From Mycobacteriales bacterium (GTDB lineage: Bacteria > Actinomycetota > Actinomycetes > JAFAQI01): DNA of 64,000 bases. The stretch covers positions 40,451 to 104,450 of the forward strand of contig DASZUS010000056.1 of assembly GCA_035547515.1 (NCBI GenBank), in the 5' to 3' direction. Positions 22,511-32,123 of this stretch are shown here, one piece after another (within the stretch, counting starts at the first letter, position 1; each line of letters opens with the position of its first letter). Made by a program: the position numbers and the translations under genes. The notes under the pieces are model-generated. The model ran no database searches. It saw only the letters and a program-made list of their open reading frames with translations, and was not told the DNA's origin.

Positions 22511-22954
22511 CTAGCGGGTCCGGAGCATGACCGTGCCAGCGGCGCGGTCGGACATCGCGCGCCCCTCGGTGTCGATCACCAGCGCGGGCGCCACGACGGC
22601 GATCAGCAGGGTGCGCAGCAGGATCCAGCCGATGAACGGCCGGGTCTTGTCGGACTCCTTCAGGACGGCGACGCCGGCCACCCGCATCCCCGGGGTCTGG
22701 CTGGCGAGGGTCACGAAGACGATCTCGATCAGCAGGAACGCGAGGTACGCCGACAGGTTCTGCCGGTCACTGGTGTGGTAGCCGCCGTTCACCACGATGG
22801 CGAGCACGTCCGCGAGCACGGCGTCGACGAGGAAGGCCAGCAGCCGAGCGCCGAAGGTAGCCACACTCCCCGGTCCACTGTCCGGATACTGCGGCTGCGG
22901 GGCGCGCTGCGGCGCAGGCTCCGGCTTGGCGGCGTACTCGGAGTCCTTGCTCAC
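22511..22954 (-). CDS. RDD family membrane protein
   Basis: GTG at 22954 gives [13 protein letters not shown]...[24 protein letters not shown]...MRVAGVAV...[10 protein letters not shown]. It occupies the conserved position upstream of glnA. The long upstream extension of the ORF is antisense to glnA and was rejected. Confidence 0.75.
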
Positions 22955-23074
22955 CCGGCAACGGTAGCCAGCGCCGGGATGCGCGAGAGCGCGGCGTACC
23001 GATACGTTCTGCAGGGTTGGTCCCAAACAGCTCAGACGATGCAGCGCGACGCCGCGCGGGGAGGCAGCAGCCGA

Positions 23075-24499
23075 ATGTTCAGCAGCGCCGACGAGGTCCT
23101 CGGCTACATCAAGAAGAACGACGTGCAGTTCGTCGACGTACGGTTCTGCGACCTGCCCGGGATCATGCAGCACTTCACCTTCCCGGCGTCGAACTTCGGC
23201 GAGTCGGTATTCACCGACGGGCTGATGTTCGACGGCTCGTCGATCCGCGGCTTCCAGCAGATCCACGAGTCGGACATGCTGCTGCTGCCCGACCCGTCGA
23301 CGGCGTACATGGACCCGTTCCGCCAGCACCCGACGCTGATCATGAACTTCTTCATCCACGACCCGCTCACCGGCGAGGCCTACAGCCGCGACCCGCGCAA
23401 CATCGCGAAGAAGGCCGAGGACTACCTCCGCGGCTCCGGGATCGCCGACACCAGCTACTTCGGGCCCGAGGCGGAGTTCTACATCTTCGACGACATCCGC
23501 TACGACCAGACGCCGCACTCCGCCTACCACTACATCGACTCGGTCGAGGCGGCGTGGAACAGCGGCAAGGAGGAGCCGGGCGGCAACAAGGGCTACAAGC
23601 CGCGATACAAGGGCGGCTACTTCCCGGTGCCGCCGACCGACCACTTCACCGACCTGCGCTCGGAGATGGTGCGGGTGCTCATCGAGATCGGCATCGACGT
23701 CGAGATGCAGCACCACGAGGTGGGTACGGCGGGGCAGGCTGAGATCGACTTCCGGTTCGGCACGCTGCTGAAGACCGCCGACAACCTGATGAACTTCAAG
23801 TACGTGATCCGCAACGTCGCGCGCCAGCACGGCCGGACGGTGACGTTCATGTCGAAGCCGATCTTCCAGGACAACGGCTCGGGCATGCACTGCCACCAGT
23901 CGCTGTGGAAGGACGGCGCGCCGCTGTTCTATGACGAGGTCGGGTACGCCGGGCTGTCGGACATGGCGCGGCACTACATCGGCGGGCTGCTCAAGCACGC
24001 ACCTTCGCTTTTGGCCTTCACGAACCCGACGACGAACTCGTACCGCCGGCTGGTGCCGGGGTATGAGGCGCCGGTCAACCTGGTGTACTCGCAGCGCAAC
24101 CGCTCCGCGTGCTGCCGGATCCCAATCACCGGCTCGAACCCGAAGGCGAAGCGGCTGGAGTTCCGGGTGCCGGACCCGTCGTGCAACCCCTACCTCGCGT
24201 TCTCCGCGATGCTGATGGCCGGCCTCGACGGTGTGGTCAACCGCATCGAGCCGCCGCAGCCGGTCGACAAGGACCTCTACGAGCTGCCGCCGGACGAGCT
24301 CGCCGCCGTACCGCAGGTGCCGGGCTCGCTCGAGGCCGTGCTCGACAACCTCGAGACCGACCACGACTACCTGCTGCAGGGTGGTGTCTTCACACCGGAC
24401 GTCATCGAGACCTGGGTCGAGTACAAGCGCGAGCACGAGGTCGACGCGATCCGCTTGCGCCCGCATCCGTACGAGTTCGCGCTCTATTACGACATCTAA
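23075..24499 (+). CDS. glnA: glutamine synthetase type I
   Basis: 474 aa from the ATG at 23075, with a [72 protein letters not shown] and the adenylylation-site context DKDLYELPP are present. Confidence 0.95.
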
Positions 24500-25010: not shown

Positions 25011-25751
25011 TTGAGCGACATCCCGGATGACATACAACTTCGACTCAGTCATGCCAGTGACCACGCGGAAACCTTGAAGCACCAACTCGCCCGATTTCCT
25101 ACGAACGACTTCACGACGCTGACTGAGGTAGAGGCCGAAGGTCTGCGCCACGTGTACAAGATCTATAAGTTGAAGAAGACGCCCCGATACTGGCCTCTCG
25201 TCCTCGGCGACTTTCTTCACGACATGCGTTCTGCACTGGACAACATGGCGTACGCGTTTGCTGCTCAGACGCACGATCCCCTCCCCGATCAGATCGAGAG
25301 ACGCATCGCTTTCCCAATCACCGACAGCGTCGGCGAGTACAGGAACAAGGCACGTAACCTCGCTGCTGATGCGGGGCAGCCCTTCGCGGATTACGTCGAA
25401 AGCGTGCAGCCGTATGGCGGACTCACAAGCGTCCACGCGGCGCTCTGGCAGCTCCAACGGCTCAACAACGTCGACAAGCACCGCAAGGTGTCGGTTGTAC
25501 ACATCTCGATCCAGAGCCAGCAGATCATCAGGCCTGACTCCATACTGAAAGAGTCGAGCTACACCCTGATGGGTTCGGTCGAAGACGGAGCGGAGATCGC
25601 GCGATTCACGTTCCACCGACCACGCTCCCAGCCGTACTTCGAGCCTAGACCCACCCTCGCGATCGGCGTGCCGCTAGGCGGCGAGTTGACGATCCTTCTG
25701 GACGCGATTTCGACAAAGGTCACGCAGATCGTGCGGGGAGCGCCTTGGTGA
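25011..25751 (+). CDS. hypothetical protein with R-x6-H (HEPN-like) motif
   Basis: 246 aa, TTG start preceded by GGGGTGAGG. RLNNVDKH at aa 150-157 (nt 25458..25481) fits the HEPN Rx4-6H pattern. LHDMRSALDNMAY is also present. GC is lower here (35/60 at 25081..25140). Confidence 0.6.
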   Translation: MSDIPDDIQLRLSHASDHAETLKHQLARFPTNDFTTLTEVEAEGLRHVYKIYKLKKTPRYWPLVLGDFLHDMRSALDNMAYAFAAQTHDPLPDQIERRIAFPITDSVGEYRNKARNLAADAGQPFADYVESVQPYGGLTSVHAALWQLQRLNNVDKHRKVSVVHISIQSQQIIRPDSILKESSYTLMGSVEDGAEIARFTFHRPRSQPYFEPRPTLAIGVPLGGELTILLDAISTKVTQIVRGAPW

Positions 25752-25942
25752 GTGGGTCCTGTCGGTTCAGCCAGCCATCTATCCGGTTCGCCTGAGTCGA
25801 TCAGGCGAGGCTCCGACGTCACCACGCCGTTACTACTGCACCGACGGACACCGGGAACGACCAAGTAGCCAGCAGGGTGCTCAACTCGCCCCCAGCCGCG
25901 CCCCGCTGCCAGCAAATCGCGCTGAGAGCCAGGTCACTGCCG

Positions 25943-25977
25943 AATGTCGCGCTGATCGCGGCTATCAGCGCGACATT
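25943..25977. promoter_or_regulatory. perfect 14-bp-stem hairpin/palindrome AATGTCGCGCTGAT-cgcggct-ATCAGCGCGACATT
   Basis: Counted base by base. It lies in the 390-nt gap between the HEPN-like gene and the nuclease-like gene. It could be a terminator for the former or an operator for the latter. Confidence 0.5.
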
Positions 25978-26143
25978 TGTCCTCACCTCGACAAAGCCGC
26001 CGGCGGGCACGTCTGTCGAGGCATGGGGCGGCGCCGGAGCCCGTGTCAATCAAGCCTGGAGGGCGGCCGACCACGTAGGTTCGCAACTGCGTGATAGGAG
26101 GAGGCGACAGGTTGAACGGTCACCCTGTCGCGCGCCGCTGAGC

Positions 26144-27096
26144 ATGGAACCCCGGCTGCTGCCCGTCAACGCCGTGCTGGCATTGACGACTCCCGGTGAC
26201 ATGAACCCGTGTCCCCTGGCAGACGCGGGATTTCGGATCGCGGCCCTTGAGGTCCCGGTCGGCGTCGAGCCGGAGAAACTCGTCGTCGATGTCGTCCTTT
26301 GGCATCCGGAAGAGGCAGTCCTCGTGGCCGTCGAAGGAAAGTCGGGTGCCAACGTCGATGAGCCTCAGGCTCAGAAGTACGGGCGCTTGGACGCCCAATC
26401 GCTTGTCCACGCATCATCGGTCGACCTGCGAAGTGGCGGACGTCCGTCGACGGCCATCCTTTACGCGGTGCAGGAACACAACGTTGCCCGGATTCGGCAG
26501 GGCCTTGCCGCCGCGGGTGTCAGCGCTCCGATACTCGGCGTGACAACCGACCACGTTCAGCTGCACGAAGCGCAGGTAGCGCACCCCCTTATCGCCAGTG
26601 CGCTGGGCACCGCAGTCGTCGAGCTGCCGTGGAAAGTTCCTCGCATCCTGCCCTGTGATCACGACTCGCCTCTCGACATCGTCCGCCCACAGGTGATGGC
26701 TGTCGTGATCGGCCACCTTCCAGACGTACCGACGAGGTCAGCGCCTCGACCATCGCTGAGGAGACTCTGCGCCATCTACCCAAGTACGGACGAGGCGCGA
26801 AGAACCGTTTCGTTCACACTGTCGGCGATTGTCTCCGCCGAATCGCGGCAGATCAGCCAGATACGTTCGAGTTCAGGCCGGCGACCGCAAACCACGAAGC
26901 CGCGATGCGCTTCCTCAGAACGCCGGAAGACCACGACAACCGTGGTCGAACCCAGGCATATCAGGCGTTGGGCCGCGAAGGTCGTGCCCGGCGCAGGCGG
27001 CCGGTACAGGACCCTGATCAGCTCGATTTGTTGAGCGAGCTCGGGAGCGGCGAAACTGTCTCTGGTAGGGACGACGATCAGGCAGAGGAGGAGTGA
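26144..27096 (+). pseudogene. RecB-like PD-(D/E)xK nuclease-fold protein, apparently interrupted by a frameshift near 26720-26735
   Basis: ATG at 26144. The motifs are VVDVVLW (D49), LVAVEGK (E64-x-K66) and QAQKY (QxxxY, aa 75-79). After about 26725 the listed frame turns Arg/Ser-rich. The -1 frame reads protein-like (TDEVSASTIAEETLRHLPKYGRGAKNRFVHTVGDCLRRIAADQPDTFEFRPATANHEAAMRFLRTPEDHD...) and ends at 27096, overlapping the next start. Confidence 0.5.
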
Positions 27097-28166
27097 TGAG
27101 CGCACGCGGTGCTCTGGCAGACGAGCTCCATCTCGACGCCTCCGCCCCAACTAAGACGTTCGTTCTCGAAGTCCATACCGATGACCCGGATGCGTACCTC
27201 GAGGAGCTGTTCGGCCGAGGAGCTGTTCACTCTACCGACGACGGGTACCTCCATCGCGCCCTTATCGACGAGGGTGAGATGTGGGTGGACCGACTGGACT
27301 CGCGATTTTGGTCCTTCCACACCGACCTTCCCGCATATCCTGCCAGGCGTTTCCTCCACGAGCGGGTGCAGCGGCGTCGCGACCTGGATTGGCTCTGGCT
27401 ACCCACGCAGCACCTTCGAAGGGTTAGCCGTAACGGCCCGGCGCGAAGGCTGCGGACCGACTTCGCCGGGCAGAGCCTTCGGGGTGTTGACGCTCCTGGA
27501 ACTGGTCTCAAACTGCAAGCCACGGGTAAGCAGGCCGAAAAGCTCTTGGACTTCCTTTCCCAGAGCGATGAGTACAAAGCGGCCTTGTCACTCGACGCGA
27601 TCCAGGTCTCGGTCGACGACGGGGCCGGCGGAGTAATGAATGAGGCTGTACATCGCCAAGGACAGTTCGCCGCGTCGGGCGACAGCCTCGACACGCACCT
27701 GCAGTTTGTGCGATCGGTTGTCGCGACATATGCCTCGTTCATCGAGTTGCTCGAGGCGAAGGCTCTGGGGTGGGATCCGCTGACGGCAGGCGACGACAAC
27801 GAAGGGGCCAGCCTTATCGGAGCGCCCGTCGGCATCCATTTCAGTCAGCACATCGCTGATTTGAGCCTGTTTGTCGAAGAGCTCTTCGACAGCAAGGAAC
27901 CCTTCCGTCTTTGGGGCGTACCACGTGTCGAGGACGATGTCGTGGAGGTAGATGCGGTCGATCTTCACGTCGGCCAGCGTCTTCGGATGGACGTAGGCCA
28001 CGACTGGATGCGCGTCTACTTGGAGCGAGGCTCCTGCGGTAACACCGTGGCGCGTCTTGTCAGCAACCTCCAACACCGCTTCGACAGCGGCCTCGAACTC
28101 AGCGATCCAGCGCTCAACGCAGCGCTGATGGCAGGTGCCGCCGTCGCCGGCTCACTGGTGGCCTAG
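27096..28166 (+). CDS. hypothetical protein (about 356 aa), no recognisable domain
   Basis: AGAGGAGGAG lies immediately upstream. GTG 27093 and ATG 27096 overlap the upstream stop (GTGATGA). The product contains WVDRLDSRFWSFHTD and VDAVDLHVGQRLRMDVGHDWMRVYLERGSCGNTVARLVSNLQ. I cannot place it in a known family. Confidence 0.65.
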   Translation: MSARGALADELHLDASAPTKTFVLEVHTDDPDAYLEELFGRGAVHSTDDGYLHRALIDEGEMWVDRLDSRFWSFHTDLPAYPARRFLHERVQRRRDLDWLWLPTQHLRRVSRNGPARRLRTDFAGQSLRGVDAPGTGLKLQATGKQAEKLLDFLSQSDEYKAALSLDAIQVSVDDGAGGVMNEAVHRQGQFAASGDSLDTHLQFVRSVVATYASFIELLEAKALGWDPLTAGDDNEGASLIGAPVGIHFSQHIADLSLFVEELFDSKEPFRLWGVPRVEDDVVEVDAVDLHVGQRLRMDVGHDWMRVYLERGSCGNTVARLVSNLQHRFDSGLELSDPALNAALMAGAAVAGSLVA

Positions 28167-28471
28167 CGAGCCGGCGAACGCCATGCTCCGTCCGGATCGC
28201 GCAGGATGGTCCTGCCAACACCGAAGTTGTTGTCGTTGACGCGATAGACACTGGGCACGTGAGCGACGACGACGGCCGGCTGCAGTTCGTAGGCGCAGGC
28301 GTCGCGGCGAGTCTCGTCCGTGCTGCCGCCAGGTTCGAGCGGCTGGTCGAAGGCATATCCGTCCACGGAGGCGACTTTCTCGCCGCACGCATGTAAGCGC
28401 CGGTAGGGCCAGCAGATGCCCGCCCCGCCGTCTCGACGGCCCCGGGGGCGATGGCTCTCGCGGAAACGCAT
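28163..28471 (-). CDS. hypothetical protein (102 aa), possibly a truncated remnant
   Basis: ORF with reasonable GC3. It is convergent with the preceding gene and overlaps it by 4 nt. It abuts the IS256 fragment, so it may be the 3' part of a disrupted gene. Confidence 0.35.
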   Translation of the reverse strand: MRFRESHRPRGRRDGGAGICWPYRRLHACGEKVASVDGYAFDQPLEPGGSTDETRRDACAYELQPAVVVAHVPSVYRVNDNNFGVGRTILRDPDGAWRSPAR

Positions 28472-28488: not shown

Positions 28489-28800
28489 GGGGTCTGTCAG
28501 CGTCTGGTTGGCCAGGCCAGGGCTGAGGGGGTGGAGCTGGTCGGCCCTGGCGGGCTGTTGACCGGGTTGACCAAGACGGTGTTGGAGACCGCGCTTGAGG
28601 AGGAGCTCACGGAGCGCCTCGGGTATGACAAGGACGATCCGGTCGGCCGCAACGGTGGCAACAACCGTAACGGCAGCCGTTCCAAGACGGTGCTCACCGA
28701 GGTCGGGCGGTCGAGCTGGACGTTCCGCGCGACCGGGACGGCACGTTCGAGCCGCTGATCGTTCGTAAGCGGCAGCGCCGTTTGGACGGGATCGAGAAGT
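28489..28800 (+). mobile_element. IS256-family transposase N-terminal fragment (frameshifted, truncated pseudogene)
   Basis: The frame reads QRLVGQARAEGVELVGPGGLLTGLTKTVLETALEEELTERLGYDKDDPVGRNGGNNRNGSRSKTVLTEVG. After a 1-nt shift it reads AVELDVPRDRDGTFEPLIVRKRQRRLDGIE. This matches the conserved N-terminal third of IS256-type transposases as I recall them. The homology stops at about 28795 and no DDE core follows. Confidence 0.7.
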
Positions 28801-28858: not shown

Positions 28859-29290
28859 TCACGCCGAAGCGCGACCGCATGCGCCGCAGACCCCAGAGAA
28901 CGTGACAGCGGCGCGTCCGCAACTCGGGCAGACCTTTAGGTCGTGACGCTCGGCGCTCTTCGCGGTGTCCCCGTGAGGCTCCGATACCGGAACGTCTCGT
29001 CCGCAGTGCTTACAGATGATGGCGGCAGGCTGAATGACCTCGGCACACCAAGGGCAGTGTCGGAGTCGCTGCCCGGCAAGCACCTGTGTCGCGGCTGCGA
29101 CCTGAGCACTGCGTACTGCTTCTGCCTCTGGAGTCGCGGGAATCACTGCGACGATGATCAGCCCAATCGGGCCGAAAAGAAGCCCAAGCACGAAACCCGC
29201 GCCAGCATGGCCCTTATTTGAGCCAATTGCGCTGCCGATGATGGCGAAAGGCAGCCCGACGACAAGCAGCAGCGCCACGAATGCGCCCAC
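28859..29290 (-). CDS. membrane protein with C-terminal double zinc-ribbon
   Basis: The ORF opens at 29350 (GTG). A better start is the GTG at 29290, preceded by GGAAGGGGG. It has two Gly-rich TM helices, then CPWC...CKHC and CPSC...CGAC pairs. Confidence 0.55.
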   Translation of the reverse strand: MGAFVALLLVVGLPFAIIGSAIGSNKGHAGAGFVLGLLFGPIGLIIVAVIPATPEAEAVRSAQVAAATQVLAGQRLRHCPWCAEVIQPAAIICKHCGRDVPVSEPHGDTAKSAERHDLKVCPSCGRAAVTFSGVCGACGRASA

Positions 29291-29582
29291 AGATGTAGCC
29301 CCCTTCCGCGCGTCCGACAACGAAGGCGCGCACGGCGTATGACAGCACACTCACTTCCCGGCGGTGCCTGGTTCTGCGGCCCCGACGCGCCGTAAGGCGC
29401 GTGCGGCGCCTAACGACTGAGTACGGCGGGTCGCCGGGGCGGAATGGCTCAAAATGCCCATGGAAAAGCCCGATCTCGCGCTCAAGACTGGAGCGTGATG
29501 ATCACGGGATGACTTGCAGCACGCTCCACCAGCTGCTCATCTCTTGTCCAGGCGCAAGCTGCGGGAAGGACCGACTCGGACG

Positions 29583-29993
29583 ATGGCCGTGCTGGGCATG
29601 ATGGTGGTCATCGGCGCGCCCGTGCTCGCTATGCTCGCCGGCTTCGCGTTGACGAGATGGACGGGCGTGGGGGCGAACGAGCTGTTTCGACGTGGCCTTG
29701 TCTCGCCCAGGCACGTCATGGATTCTCCGCCCGTTGTCGAGAACTACCAGTGGATGTCGTTGGCTGATGCCGCGCAATATCTCGGGCTTGCAGAAAGGCG
29801 GCTCCGGCCAACGGTCTCGGCCGGAGTCCTCAAGCGAGCGACGAACTACGCGGGCGAGGTTGGCGTCACCCGCTCGTCCATCGAGCGGCAGTTGGAATGG
29901 CGCCGGAACTCGACGAAGAAGGACCGGGCACGTCGGGCGGCCCTGACCGTCCTTTCCGCCTTGTTCGGGCCTTATAGGGACTACCGCCCGTAG
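29583..29993 (+). CDS. membrane-anchored hypothetical protein with putative helix-turn-helix
   Basis: ATG at 29583 after GGGAAGGA. It has an N-terminal TM helix (MAVLGMMVVIGAPVLAMLAGFAL) and an excisionase/MerR-like segment (WMSLADAAQYLGLAERRLR). Confidence 0.45.
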   Translation: MAVLGMMVVIGAPVLAMLAGFALTRWTGVGANELFRRGLVSPRHVMDSPPVVENYQWMSLADAAQYLGLAERRLRPTVSAGVLKRATNYAGEVGVTRSSIERQLEWRRNSTKKDRARRAALTVLSALFGPYRDYRP

Positions 29994-30042: not shown

Positions 30043-30294
30043 CTATTCCTCGACTGGACGCACCCAAGTCGCGCGATAGTCAAAGCTGTCTTGCTGAGCC
30101 TGCTCGAAGGTGAAGCGCACCTGCTGGCCAGTGACTAACTCTCTGTAGCCCTGCATGTCTATGACCGAGAAGCCGACCCAGGCATCGCGGCCGTGGGGAA
30201 GGTCGGGCGAACTGATCGCGCCCCAGCCTCTGTCCGGCTTGAAGAACTTCACAACGCCGCGACTCGCTCGTGGTCTGTCCGACACGCGACCCAT
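30043..30294 (-). CDS. cold-shock domain (CSD) containing protein, divergent type
   Basis: ATG at 30294 gives MGRVSDRPRASRGVVKFFKPDRGWGAISSPDLPHGRDAWVGFSVIDMQGYRELVTGQQVRFTFEQ. It has an RNP1-like KFF..DRGWGAI in place of the canonical KGFGFI. Confidence 0.65.
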   Translation of the reverse strand: MGRVSDRPRASRGVVKFFKPDRGWGAISSPDLPHGRDAWVGFSVIDMQGYRELVTGQQVRFTFEQAQQDSFDYRATWVRPVEE

Positions 30295-30357
30295 CTTGCC
30301 TCCGCACTTCGGCCACAAGTGCGTGACAACGGCAGGCGTCATCGCCGACGCCGTTGC

Positions 30358-30369
30358 GCAACTAGTTGC
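30358..30369. promoter_or_regulatory. 12-bp palindrome GCAACTAGTTGC, candidate MarR operator, next to a TATAGT -10 box
   Basis: It lies in the AT-rich divergent region between the CSD gene and marR. TATAGT at 30382..30387 ends 6 nt before the marR ATG, which suggests a leaderless mRNA. Confidence 0.35.
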
Positions 30370-30393
30370 ATAAGGTAATGATATAGTTGGCTC

Positions 30394-30855
30394 ATGGACG
30401 AGCCGTCGGTCGAGAGCCTCAGCGATGAGCTGGTCACATGCCTCGAGGACCTGATCAGCGTCCTGCGGCAGCTGCCTGCAGATCCTGACCTGAGCCTGAA
30501 CGCTGCACTCGTCGTCCGCCACTGCGTCGCCAACGGACCCACGCGGGTGTCGGTGCTCGCCGAACAGCTCGGAGTCAGCCAGCCCGCAGCAACCCAACTC
30601 GTCGACCGTCTGCAAGCCGAGGGCTGGGTACGGCGGACAGCCGACGCAGACGACCGCCGGGCCGTGCTGACCGTGGCGACTGCGACCGGCCGACGCCGGC
30701 TTGCCAAACGACACGCGACACGGGTGCGGTCCGTCGCCCAAGGCGTACGGGAGCTCGATGCGTCGCAGCAGCGCCTCCTGCAGGCCGCGGCACCTGCCCT
30801 GAAGGAGCTTGTCTCCACCCTGAAGTCCATCACGCGCAATGGAGATGCGGCATGA
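30394..30855 (+). CDS. MarR family transcriptional regulator
   Basis: 153 aa. It has a winged-HTH segment (PTRVSVLAEQLGVSQPAATQLVDRLQAEGWVRR..DADDRR). Its stop overlaps the MFS start (ATGA). Confidence 0.85.
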   Translation: MDEPSVESLSDELVTCLEDLISVLRQLPADPDLSLNAALVVRHCVANGPTRVSVLAEQLGVSQPAATQLVDRLQAEGWVRRTADADDRRAVLTVATATGRRRLAKRHATRVRSVAQGVRELDASQQRLLQAAAPALKELVSTLKSITRNGDAA

Positions 30856-32123
30856 CCGCTGAGTCGACACGCAGCAACGACGTGCAAGCCGTGAGCCCGT
30901 TCCGCCAGCCGCGCGCCGTCTGGGCCGTCGCGCTGGCGTGCGTCGTCTCGTTCATGGGCATCGGCTTGGTCGACCCGATCTTGCCCGCCCTGCGCTCCTC
31001 GTTGCACGCGAGCACCAGCCAGATCTCCCTGCTGTTCACCAGCTACCTGGTCGTGACGGCCGTGATGATGCTGATCACCAACGCGGTGAGCAGCCGGATC
31101 GGCGCGAAGCGCACCCTGGTCGGAGGGCTGGTCCTGATCGTCGCGTTCTCCCTGTTAGCCGGTACGTCGAACAGCGTGGGCCAGATCGTCGGCTACCGCG
31201 CCGGATGGGGCCTCGGCAACGCGCTGTTCATCGCCACCTCCCTCGCGGTGATCGTCGCGTCGGCATCCGGCGGCTTCACCGGCGCGATCGTGCTGTACGA
31301 GACGGCGCTCGGCGTCGGGATCGCGGTCGGCCCGCTGCTCGGCGGACTACTCGGCGGGGTCAGCTGGCGCGGGCCGTTCTTCGGCGTCTCCGCGCTCATG
31401 GCGGTCGCCCTGGTGCTCACCGTCACGCTGGTCGACCGCACTCCCCCGCCGCCGACTCGGACATCGGTGCTGGCTCCGATCAAGGCGCTCTCGCACCGCG
31501 GGCTGCTGACGCTGAGCCTGGTCGCCCTGCTCTACAACTGGGGCTTCTTCACCCTGCTGGGTTATTCGCCGTACCCGATGGGGCTCGACGCCCACCAACT
31601 CGGCCTGGTCTTCTGCGGCTGGGGCATCTTGGTCGCCATCTTCGCGGTCGAGGGCGCGCCGCGACTGCAGGCCCGCTTCGGTACGGCCCGCACGCTCTAC
31701 GCCAACCTCGCGATCTTCGCGATCGTGCTCGTCGCGACGGGCATCTGGGTGCACCACCTGGCGCCACTCGTCGTCATGGTGATCGTCGCCGGCGCGTGCA
31801 TCGGGCTGAACAACACGCTGATGACGCAGGCCGTCATGACCATCTCGGAAGCCGATCGCCCGGTCGCCTCTGCCGCGTACGGGTTCGTGCGATTCATCGG
31901 CGGTGGGCTTGCGCCGTACTTCGCCAGCAGGCTCGCGCAAGCACACGGCGACCACCTTCCGTTCTACATCGGGGCCGCAGCGGTCGCCCTCGCGGTCCCC
32001 GTGCTCGCCTCTGTGCACGGGCAGCTCGCCGTCGCCGAGCAGCGCCAGAGTGAGTCACACACCGAGCCACGCTTGGACGACCCCGATGTCGTCGAAGAAG
32101 CCGCGATCAACTCCGCCAGCTGA
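30852..32123 (+). CDS. MFS transporter (drug:H+ antiporter-like)
   Basis: 423 aa, about 12 TM helices. An MFS motif A-like segment LITNAVSSRIGAKRTL is present. Confidence 0.85.
   Translation: MTAESTRSNDVQAVSPFRQPRAVWAVALACVVSFMGIGLVDPILPALRSSLHASTSQISLLFTSYLVVTAVMMLITNAVSSRIGAKRTLVGGLVLIVAFSLLAGTSNSVGQIVGYRAGWGLGNALFIATSLAVIVASASGGFTGAIVLYETALGVGIAVGPLLGGLLGGVSWRGPFFGVSALMAVALVLTVTLVDRTPPPPTRTSVLAPIKALSHRGLLTLSLVALLYNWGFFTLLGYSPYPMGLDAHQLGLVFCGWGILVAIFAVEGAPRLQARFGTARTLYANLAIFAIVLVATGIWVHHLAPLVVMVIVAGACIGLNNTLMTQAVMTISEADRPVASAAYGFVRFIGGGLAPYFASRLAQAHGDHLPFYIGAAAVALAVPVLASVHGQLAVAEQRQSESHTEPRLDDPDVVEEAAINSAS

Follow-up and report, generated by a model that had tools for sequence, protein, structure and literature searches.

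The closest described relatives of the locus reported here are MJECL32 and MJECL33, two genes on the large extrachromosomal element of Methanocaldococcus jannaschii, and further likenesses are found in Hachiman, in NucS/EndoMS, in the RecB-family nucleases, in RnlA/LsoA and in the type II toxin-antitoxin modules. The locus lies in a stretch of 64,000 nucleotides from a Mycobacteriales bacterium (assembly GCA_035547515.1, contig DASZUS010000056.1, positions 40,451 to 104,450), here called the window in its whole length, with all coordinates counted from its first letter. It consists of two genes, B and C, with the open reading frames (ORFs) A and D on either side. We consider it probable, if by some way short of assured, that a conflict module which is self-contained and moves horizontally is present in decayed form at 26144-28166; it would comprise two genes, B and C only, and would serve in defence, in addiction or in both. 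The original prediction for this DNA had joined all four ORFs in one nuclease-centred, defence-like cassette. All four are present where it had placed them, and the core that it described, a nuclease-type protein B with a larger partner that it could not assign, still stands, while A and D prove to be unlinked to that core.

MJECL32 and MJECL33 are true homologues of B and C, and in both organisms the two genes are adjacent and overlap. C was aligned to MJECL33 by tblastn with an E-value of 5e-25 and 88% coverage. The archaeal pair differs in its order, which is C then B, in its sequence (20-29% identity), in the length of MJECL32, which has 438 amino acids (aa), and in the motif QLDL[LF] of B, which is reduced to QTTLD. 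Both families are represented in Pfam, where PF25924 ("MJECL33") has a precomputed match to C and to all 120 homologues listed, and PF27326 ("MJECL32") has one which is marked 'weak' for the frameshifted B of the window and is unmarked for many of its homologues. The Pfam copy that was scanned locally predates both entries, hence the local scan of B and C was empty. C also matches phrog_22469 (function not known; E=5e-38), the one match above noise when A to D were compared with Pfam, NCBIfam, PADLOC and the PHROGs. In all, more than 489 relatives of C and 686 clusters of B relatives at 50% identity were found, and one B homologue is named 'PD-(D/E)XK nuclease superfamily protein' in UniRef. 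The description of the four ORFs as orphans therefore does not apply to B and C, which, being already catalogued in Pfam with function not known, are not new sequences. What appears to be undescribed is the module itself, namely how it is built, the obligate pairing of its genes in Bacteria and Archaea alike, and the signature of a conflict system that it carries.

Hachiman, which combines the PD-(D/E)xK nuclease HamA with the helicase HamB, resembles the pair, as do other two-gene defence systems made of a nuclease and a sensor, in having a PD-(D/E)xK effector (predicted in the case of B) with an obligate larger partner and in its presence in defence islands. However, there is no sequence relation between the two, no match to HamA or HamB was obtained, and C is neither a helicase nor an ATPase. 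NucS/EndoMS, a mismatch endonuclease, is similar to B in being a PD-(D/E)xK nuclease, as B is predicted to be, in having a short clamp-type motif at its C-terminus and in occurring in Archaea and Actinobacteria. B differs from it in giving no match to the NucS domain, in lacking the N-terminal mismatch-binding domain and in having a winged helix and an obligate partner; furthermore, B-C occurs sporadically and in islands, while NucS belongs to the conserved housekeeping genes and is present in a single copy. With the RecB-family nucleases and Cas4, B shares the motif order D ... E-x-K ... Q-x-x-x-Y. Unlike Cas4, it possesses no four-cysteine Fe-S cluster, is not associated with CRISPR as a rule and has no Cas4 match in Pfam, NCBIfam or PADLOC and no PDDEXK_1 match in Pfam. 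The B family has one nearly conserved cysteine column (C109), which is occupied by Val in the window.

RnlA and LsoA possess TBP-like N-terminal domains and a HEPN RNase, and RnlA is an anti-phage toxin. Part of C was aligned to the TBP-like domains of RnlA (Foldseek probability 0.72), but the match is weak with a template-modelling (TM) score of 0.14, C has no HEPN domain, and the nuclease of the pair would be a separate protein of DNase type. Type II toxin-antitoxin modules are recognised by small proteins and an autoregulating DNA-binding antitoxin, from which B and C, at 320 and 356 aa, depart. By these comparisons the pair, though closest in logic to two-gene systems of a nuclease and a partner such as Hachiman, falls outside Hachiman, the toxin-antitoxin modules and NucS. 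Nor was any other named system that was searched matched by it, as had been supposed originally. When run against PADLOC-DB v2 (2023), whose models cover Shedu, Hachiman, Gabija, Septu, Zorya, BREX, DISARM, PD-T4/Lambda, the PDC candidates and others, ORFs A to D and four archaeal/Bacillota pairs were unmatched at E<=0.1, save for a noise-level match to REase_II. Proteins of the B and C families are also absent from the six recently validated systems of Streptomyces described by Mordret et al. (2025) and from the candidates that failed there.

Linkage, decay and genomic setting of the pair

The linkage of B and C was followed in approximately 150 fetched loci, including 50 genome loci found through C and 80 metagenome loci found through B. 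In about 40 of the 50 genome loci, the gene that directly precedes C on its strand is B, a few of the others having C alone or fragments only and two Chloroflexota loci having the order C then B. Among the 80 metagenome loci, C is the next gene in every case with enough contig downstream. Any overlap of the two genes was found in 80 of 108 B-C pairs, with a 4-nt stop/start overlap in 64 of these 108. In the window, the stop of B and the start of C both lie within GTGATGA (27093-27099) behind a strong ribosome-binding site (Table 1), just as had first been read, and GGAGG-type sites are also present upstream of C in other loci. The order B-C is that of Actinomycetota, and the order C-B that of Archaea, Bacillota and Chloroflexota. 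The latter order occurs on plasmids of M. jannaschii (MJECL33-MJECL32), Halobacterium hubeiense, Lysinibacillus, Bacillus cereus and Metabacillus, and the second genes of these reversed pairs are homologous to B (hhalign probability 97.5%, E=7e-12). No third conserved gene was found by all-against-all clustering of the flanking ORFs. The co-occurrence of B and C in other genomes, which the original prediction had proposed as a check on itself, is thus strongly borne out.

On the B. cereus and Metabacillus plasmids, a gene of the PemK/MazF toxin family of approximately 240 aa lies directly upstream of the C-B pair (L062:4857-5594 and L147:3796-4512), and it may be a lineage-specific third component. 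One 655-aa protein (P0210) was considered as a possible fusion of B and C. The linker that replaces the tail of B in this protein reads as out-of-frame, high-GC sequence, and the apparent fusion is probably a frameshift read-through; for this reason it was not counted as evidence of interaction.

The extent of the module is given by its nearest relative, locus L148, with which the window has approximately 70% nucleotide identity. This homology is limited to 26145-28141, in other words to B and C only, and the L148 flanks (1-310 and 2412-2774) carry an HNH-motif gene and another unrelated gene. As the similarity begins and ends at the borders of B-C, a mobile unit is defined. The flanks of the pair differ in almost every genome. 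Synteny between the window and a close relative stops exactly at the glnA stop (24498), which makes the region in question the start of a variable island, and the B-C pair was not found at the matching locus of close relatives. GC content is approximately 70% in the flanks of the window and 60-65% over 25-28 kb, in keeping with the earlier description of a low-GC island beside debris of an insertion sequence (IS). The glutamine synthetase of the window groups with those of metagenome-assembled genomes of Frankiaceae and Mycobacteriales.

The B gene of the window is interrupted by a 1-nt deletion, the deleted base being ambiguous within approximately 26713-26721, and the need for repair that was noted at the outset is upheld by its homologues. 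Repaired B, of approximately 320 aa, can be aligned over its full length with 40 intact homologues, the junction showing one extra residue, and the alignment to L148 gives the window a 1-nt gap at the same junction. A hidden Markov model (HMM) of the family, built from 41 homologues, matches the 5′ part over positions 1-193 (E=2e-79, 266 bits) and the 3′ part over positions 193-316 (E=1e-47, 161 bits over 124 positions). The two halves are alike in bits per position (approximately 1.3-1.4), from which it follows that the frameshift is either recent or a sequencing error. The C gene is intact. Most likely, the module is inactive in this genome through the deletion in B, with C alone remaining intact.

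The direction of decay was counted in pairs lying fully inside their contigs. In the metagenome set, both genes are intact in 35 pairs, B is broken with C intact in eight, both are broken in one, and B intact with C broken was found in none. The corresponding numbers in the genome set are 32, two, none and none, with three further loci in which C is intact and B absent. Discordant decay is therefore 10 against 0 and always strikes B, and the window copy adds one more. Since random sequencing error would strike both genes about equally, this one-way decay points to selective loss of the nuclease B, as one would expect of a B that does harm when deregulated and a C that is harmless or protective.

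The same counts bear on two other explanations. In the first, the pair is an addiction module in the style of toxin-antitoxin systems, B being the toxin and C the antitoxin, which stabilises mobile elements and has no dedicated anti-phage role. We regard this as unlikely, although it shares much with the explanation that we prefer. The loss of B with C retained in 13 loci and the window, and never the reverse, would fit a toxic partner that is lost first, and so would the tight translational coupling of the two genes, their presence on plasmids and on an extrachromosomal element of an archaeon, their position beside a conjugative element in another case, and the frequency of toxin-antitoxin genes in their vicinity. 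However, the proteins are large, C does not resemble the usual labile antitoxin that binds DNA, and its many invariant polar residues suggest an activity of its own. In addition, the DNA-binding winged helix sits on B and not on C, and no conserved operator palindrome is present upstream, the best palindromes upstream of B in 92 loci being no better than those of a coding-sequence control. It should also be mentioned that many toxin-antitoxin systems defend their hosts as well, and in this respect addiction overlaps with the two-gene conflict module proposed above.

The second explanation is that the frameshift is an error of sequencing or assembly and that the real organism carries an intact, functioning module. 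It, too, is doubtful. The source looks like a metagenome-assembled genome, which speaks for an error and against a decayed copy, as do the single-base size of the indel and the family-level conservation that is kept by both halves of B. Nevertheless, an independent assembly (Logan) gives the same broken 385-aa frame-2 ORF, and among the discordant pairs of the same contigs it is always B that is broken (8 vs 0), a bias which random errors would not produce.

The genes around the pair often belong to defence systems or mobile elements. Hachiman and a MazF-like gene are found near the B. cereus pair, and an OLD nuclease, an EVE protein, a PIN protein and VapBC near that of the M. jannaschii element. 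The Thermostaphylospora pair is flanked by DUF499, DUF1156 and SNF2 genes, the Actinophytocola pair has an integrative conjugative element (FtsK/RepSA) in its flank, and in Acidimicrobiia GmrSD, an OLD-like protein and a helicase with SNF2 and NOV_C domains are located nearby. The 123 nearest neighbours include integrases, GmrSD/PbeA, Cas1, Mrr_N, DrmD-like and BrxH-like helicases and transposases. The defence-island setting that was first suggested is supported, the pair standing in variable surroundings that are often defence-rich or mobile.

At four loci (L001, L040, L041 and L042), an intact C without B stands next to large SNF2 helicases, OLD-like ATPase-TOPRIM proteins, GmrSD or AAA_16 ATPases, and the SNF2 helicases of the Acidimicrobiia loci L041 and L037 carry a NOV_C domain. 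C might cooperate with other effectors or have an independent function.

Predicted architecture of proteins B and C

Among the 41 homologues, the columns E36, D49, E64, K66, G68, N70, Q75, R116, D172, P262, R268 and Q275 of B are invariant, and Y79 is nearly so (at least 90% conserved). D49 and E64-x-K66 align with the D-V-(I/V)-L ... E-C-K-S of the archaeal/Bacillota relatives (hhalign). Both the catalytic motif D...(D/E)-x-K of the PD-(D/E)xK nucleases and the Q-x-x-x-Y of RecB/Cas4 are present, and the conservation of D-x14-E-x-K and QxxxY throughout the family, first remarked in the window sequence, is real evidence for a RecB-type PD-(D/E)xK site. B is accordingly described as a RecB-type, PD-(D/E)xK nuclease-like protein, and it is from these motifs that we infer nuclease activity.

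The AlphaFold2 model of B has a predicted local distance difference test (pLDDT) score of 88.8, rising to approximately 95-98 in the 5′ part, and a predicted TM (pTM) score of 0.81. Four parts can be distinguished in the model, these being an N-terminal alpha/beta domain, a second domain with the order helix-strand-helix-helix-strand-strand, a short helix of sequence PEDxDxRGRTQAYQA (from 26923), and a disordered tail. For the first domain, Foldseek gave PD-(D/E)xK matches in the PDB (SspB, MGME1 and DrdV) which are weak, with E-values of 0.06 or worse; weak family or fold matches of B to this superfamily comprise SspB, MGME1, HSDR_N_2 and REase_II. The second domain matches winged helices, namely the C-terminal domains of Scc1, ScpA and Cdt1, with a target-normalised TM of 0.70 and a root-mean-square deviation of 2.6 A, and the winged-helix segment is basic (pI 9.3). 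A sequence search of the PDB with the B profile gave no match.

After the RGRTQxYQ helix, the tail of B consists of a basic stretch, the pentapeptide QLDLL (27019-27033) and acidic residues. The pLDDT is approximately 55-70 in the QLDLL tail and below 50 in the adjoining last segment (305-318). The pattern Q-x-[DSEN]-L-[FLWYM] is found in 76 of 109 members of the B family and close variants in most others. The Chloroflexota homologues have EQLSLSLG or EQLSLAFE at the C-terminus, that of Lysinibacillus has DQLSLFDYENY, and those of B. cereus and Metabacillus have QLTI(E/D)EF. The consensus for binding to the bacterial beta clamp is a QL[SD]LF pentapeptide or a QLxLxL hexapeptide, reportedly defined by Dalrymple in 2001. 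The tail of B resembles it in having a QL[SD]LF-like pentapeptide in a disordered terminal region. A precedent is found in the NucS of Actinobacteria, a clamp-activated PD-(D/E)xK nuclease with the motif [EK]-[LY]-[TR]-L-F (PMC6159515). By its motif, the tail might bind the sliding clamp, a suggestion that we put forward tentatively and hold to be somewhat less probable than its contrary.

C is modelled with confidence by AlphaFold2 (pLDDT 91, pTM 0.90). By DSSP, the order S1-H1-S2-S3-S4-S5-H2 fits domains 1 and 3 of the model and domain 2 in part. Foldseek matches to C were TBP and RnlA in the PDB, with probabilities of 0.72 or less, and TBPs of giant viruses in BFVD, with probabilities of 0.94-0.95 but TM scores of 0.26 or less. 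Neither C (PDB, BFVD) nor B (PDB) gave a convincing match over the whole protein. As the Foldseek matches are weak, the TBP-like label of C is drawn from the order of secondary-structure elements together with these low-TM matches, and the assignment of three TBP-like domains to C is tentative. The C profile also gave no match in a sequence search of the PDB, and neither NTPase motifs nor a HEPN domain were found in the protein. From Actinomycetota to Archaea, the residues R70, D98, W101, G189, H201, Y212, E220, F270, G274, D289, H291, C314, N316, R320 and N324 of C are invariant. This set resembles a binding or catalytic site more closely than it does a core with a structural function only.

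These features would also suit an accessory factor of DNA repair or replication, with a clamp-directed, structure-specific nuclease and a DNA-binding partner that, in the manner of NucS/EndoMS, serve the host, or the replication of a mobile element, rather than conflict. The clamp-binding-like motif at the C-terminus is conserved across phyla, RecB-type motifs are typical of repair nucleases, NucS provides an actinobacterial precedent, and TBP-like domains are known in repair enzymes, though the fold matches of C are weak. Set against them, the distribution of the pair is patchy, with variable flanks and an island-like GC content, pseudogenisation is frequent, the pair is absent at the same locus in close relatives, and it is co-localised with restriction and defence genes and unconnected with operons of replication or repair. 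We therefore hold a repair function to be improbable, more so than either addiction or an assembly error.

In the two-gene conflict module that we prefer, B would be the effector, with its RecB-type nuclease domain, basic winged-helix DNA-binding domain, conserved helix and disordered tail. C would be its obligate partner, translationally coupled to it, and would act as a DNA- or ligand-sensing regulator which restrains B until a signal associated with an invader is perceived. Upon this signal B would cut DNA, and its tail would possibly tether it to the sliding clamp and hence to replicating DNA. The outcome would be defence against phages or plasmids, or addiction. In its most far-reaching form, the B-C pair would represent a so far undescribed kind of immunity, common to Bacteria and Archaea, in which a clamp-tethered RecB-type nuclease, gated by a TBP-like DNA-sensing partner, destroys replicating foreign replicons, and C would be a new enzymatic or sensor fold with a D-x-H ... 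C-G-N ... R ... N site. This extended form is speculative and we think it rather unlikely.

A number of observations weigh against a defence module of this kind. The genomic context is mixed, many neighbours of the pair being ordinary metabolic or regulatory genes, and for this reason the association with defence genes and mobile elements is real but moderate. C was not found in 50,697 phage genomes by tblastn, and nothing was found in the viral contigs of IMG/VR. With no PADLOC match, it is the context that speaks for defence, and the gene names, Pfam identifiers, accessions and signature peptides of B and C were not found in the literature. All Foldseek matches in the PDB for C and for the nuclease domain of B had E-values above 1e-3. 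As regards the clamp, the archaeal tails of B end in QTTLD (at the terminus) or contain QSRLD, which are partial PIP-like matches in which the motif is just Q-x-x-L-D, and the tail motif might equally serve for docking onto C or for autoinhibition.

Flanking features of the locus

The features of the locus and its surroundings are listed in Table 1. Codon-position GC marks A, B and C as coding, with a phase shift in B near 26650-26740, and is ambiguous for D. Scans for tRNA genes and Rfam families found neither an integration site nor an RNA component, and a promoter scan found no sigma-70-like site, a result which is uninformative for actinomycetes.

Table 1. Positions of the features at and around the B-C pair in the window
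Feature	Position	Strand	Remarks
651-aa ORF	22511-24466	-	Antisense to glutamine synthetase; typical spurious long ORF of high-GC DNA
Glutamine synthetase	23075-24499	+	
ORF A	25011-25751	+	TTG start, 246 aa
Near-perfect palindrome, 35 bp	25943-25977	none	Between A and B
B, 5′ part (frame 2)	26144 to ~26721	+	Residues 1 to ~193; PD-(D/E)xK/RecB-type nuclease-like domain and start of winged helix
B, frameshift site	26713-26722	+	1-nt deletion relative to intact homologues
B, 3′ part (frame 1, -1 frame)	~26719-27096	+	Rest of winged helix, PEDxDxRGRTQAYQA helix and tail; stop at 27094-27096
Shine-Dalgarno sequence of C, AGAGGAGGAG	27084-27093	+	Inside the codons of the B tail
C	27093-28166	+	357 aa from GTG, 356 aa from ATG at 27096; MJECL33 family; three predicted TBP-like alpha/beta domains
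ORF D	28163-28471	-	102 aa, 4-nt overlap with C
IS256-family (Mutator) transposase remnant, ~300 bp	28498-28795	+	PF00872, E=2.7e-10
ORF beyond the IS remnant	28859-29350	-	
ORF beyond the IS remnant	29514-29993	+	
ORF beyond the IS remnant	30043-30870	-	

A search of 5.8 billion proteins gave a single homologue of ORF A (P0163, 61% identity, equal length). This homologue (L058:5648-6388) stands alone on the opposite strand among phage-type genes (a tape measure protein with PF10145, WhiB and an HTH_17 protein), with no B or C gene in its vicinity. Its moron-like position suggests that A may be a separate, phage-borne conflict gene; A is a real gene of phage-moron type and a unit separate from B-C. 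No match to A was found in Pfam, NCBIfam or PADLOC, its PHROG matches were just noise (E>0.2), and none was found among PDB sequences at E<=0.1. A had been taken for an RNase-type protein on account of an R-x6-H motif. The motif R-x4-6-H occurs three times in A, including R150-H157, and as at least one occurrence is found in 89% of shuffled A sequences and no HEPN profile match was obtained, this assignment is rejected.

ORF D is convergent with C and overlaps it as originally described. It has no match in Pfam, NCBIfam, PADLOC or the PHROGs and lies outside the region of the window that is homologous to L148. D is unsupported as a gene and is probably no part of the B-C module.

The palindrome between A and B reads AATGTCGCGCTGATCGC-G-GCTATCAGCGCGACATT, with arms of 17 nt, a spacer of 1 nt and a weak T-rich stretch after it. 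It is unique to the window, as the regions preceding B in 92 other loci contain nothing comparable. By its form it resembles a terminator, and the transcript of A probably stops there; alternatively, it could be a protein-binding or recombination site.

That A, B, C and D form a single four-gene defence cassette, with a HEPN-like RNase, a DNase, a partner and a small convergent gene, is very improbable, for although the genes adjoin one another in a low-GC stretch and A is perhaps a conflict gene itself, its sole homologue being moron-like in a phage-like contig, no counterpart of A or D was found next to the other B-C pairs in the approximately 150 fetched loci, B is preceded in a close relative (L004) by a gene without relation to A, the L148 homology covers B-C only, a strong hairpin separates A from B, the R-x6-H of A is expected by chance and D is without any support.

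The IS256 remnant corresponds to profile positions 21-75 only, that is, to the N-terminal part, and has 71-76% identity to IS256 transposases by blastn. Of the three ORFs that follow it, one encodes a membrane protein in which a double zinc ribbon was recognised (PF12773, E=5e-7) and one has a weak HTH_17/excisionase-like match (E=0.06), while the C-terminal end of the third (275 aa) is of cold-shock type by eye. These ORFs may be the leftovers of an integrated element.

Possible meaning of the pair for conflict biology

The interest of the locus lies in the B-C family rather than in the window copy, which is probably a relic bearing a pseudogene. If the pair serves in defence or addiction, it would represent a new effector-partner architecture, in which a three-domain TBP-like protein is combined with a RecB-type nuclease that bears a winged helix and ends in a clamp-like tail. 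The pair spans Actinomycetota, Bacillota, methanogens and haloarchaea and is apparently not covered by current detection tools. The repeated loss of the nuclease at loci that keep C suggests that its presence has a measurable cost in fitness, and possibly that C has a function independent of it. The clamp motif, if it acts as proposed, would offer a concrete route by which a nuclease may discriminate replicating invaders.

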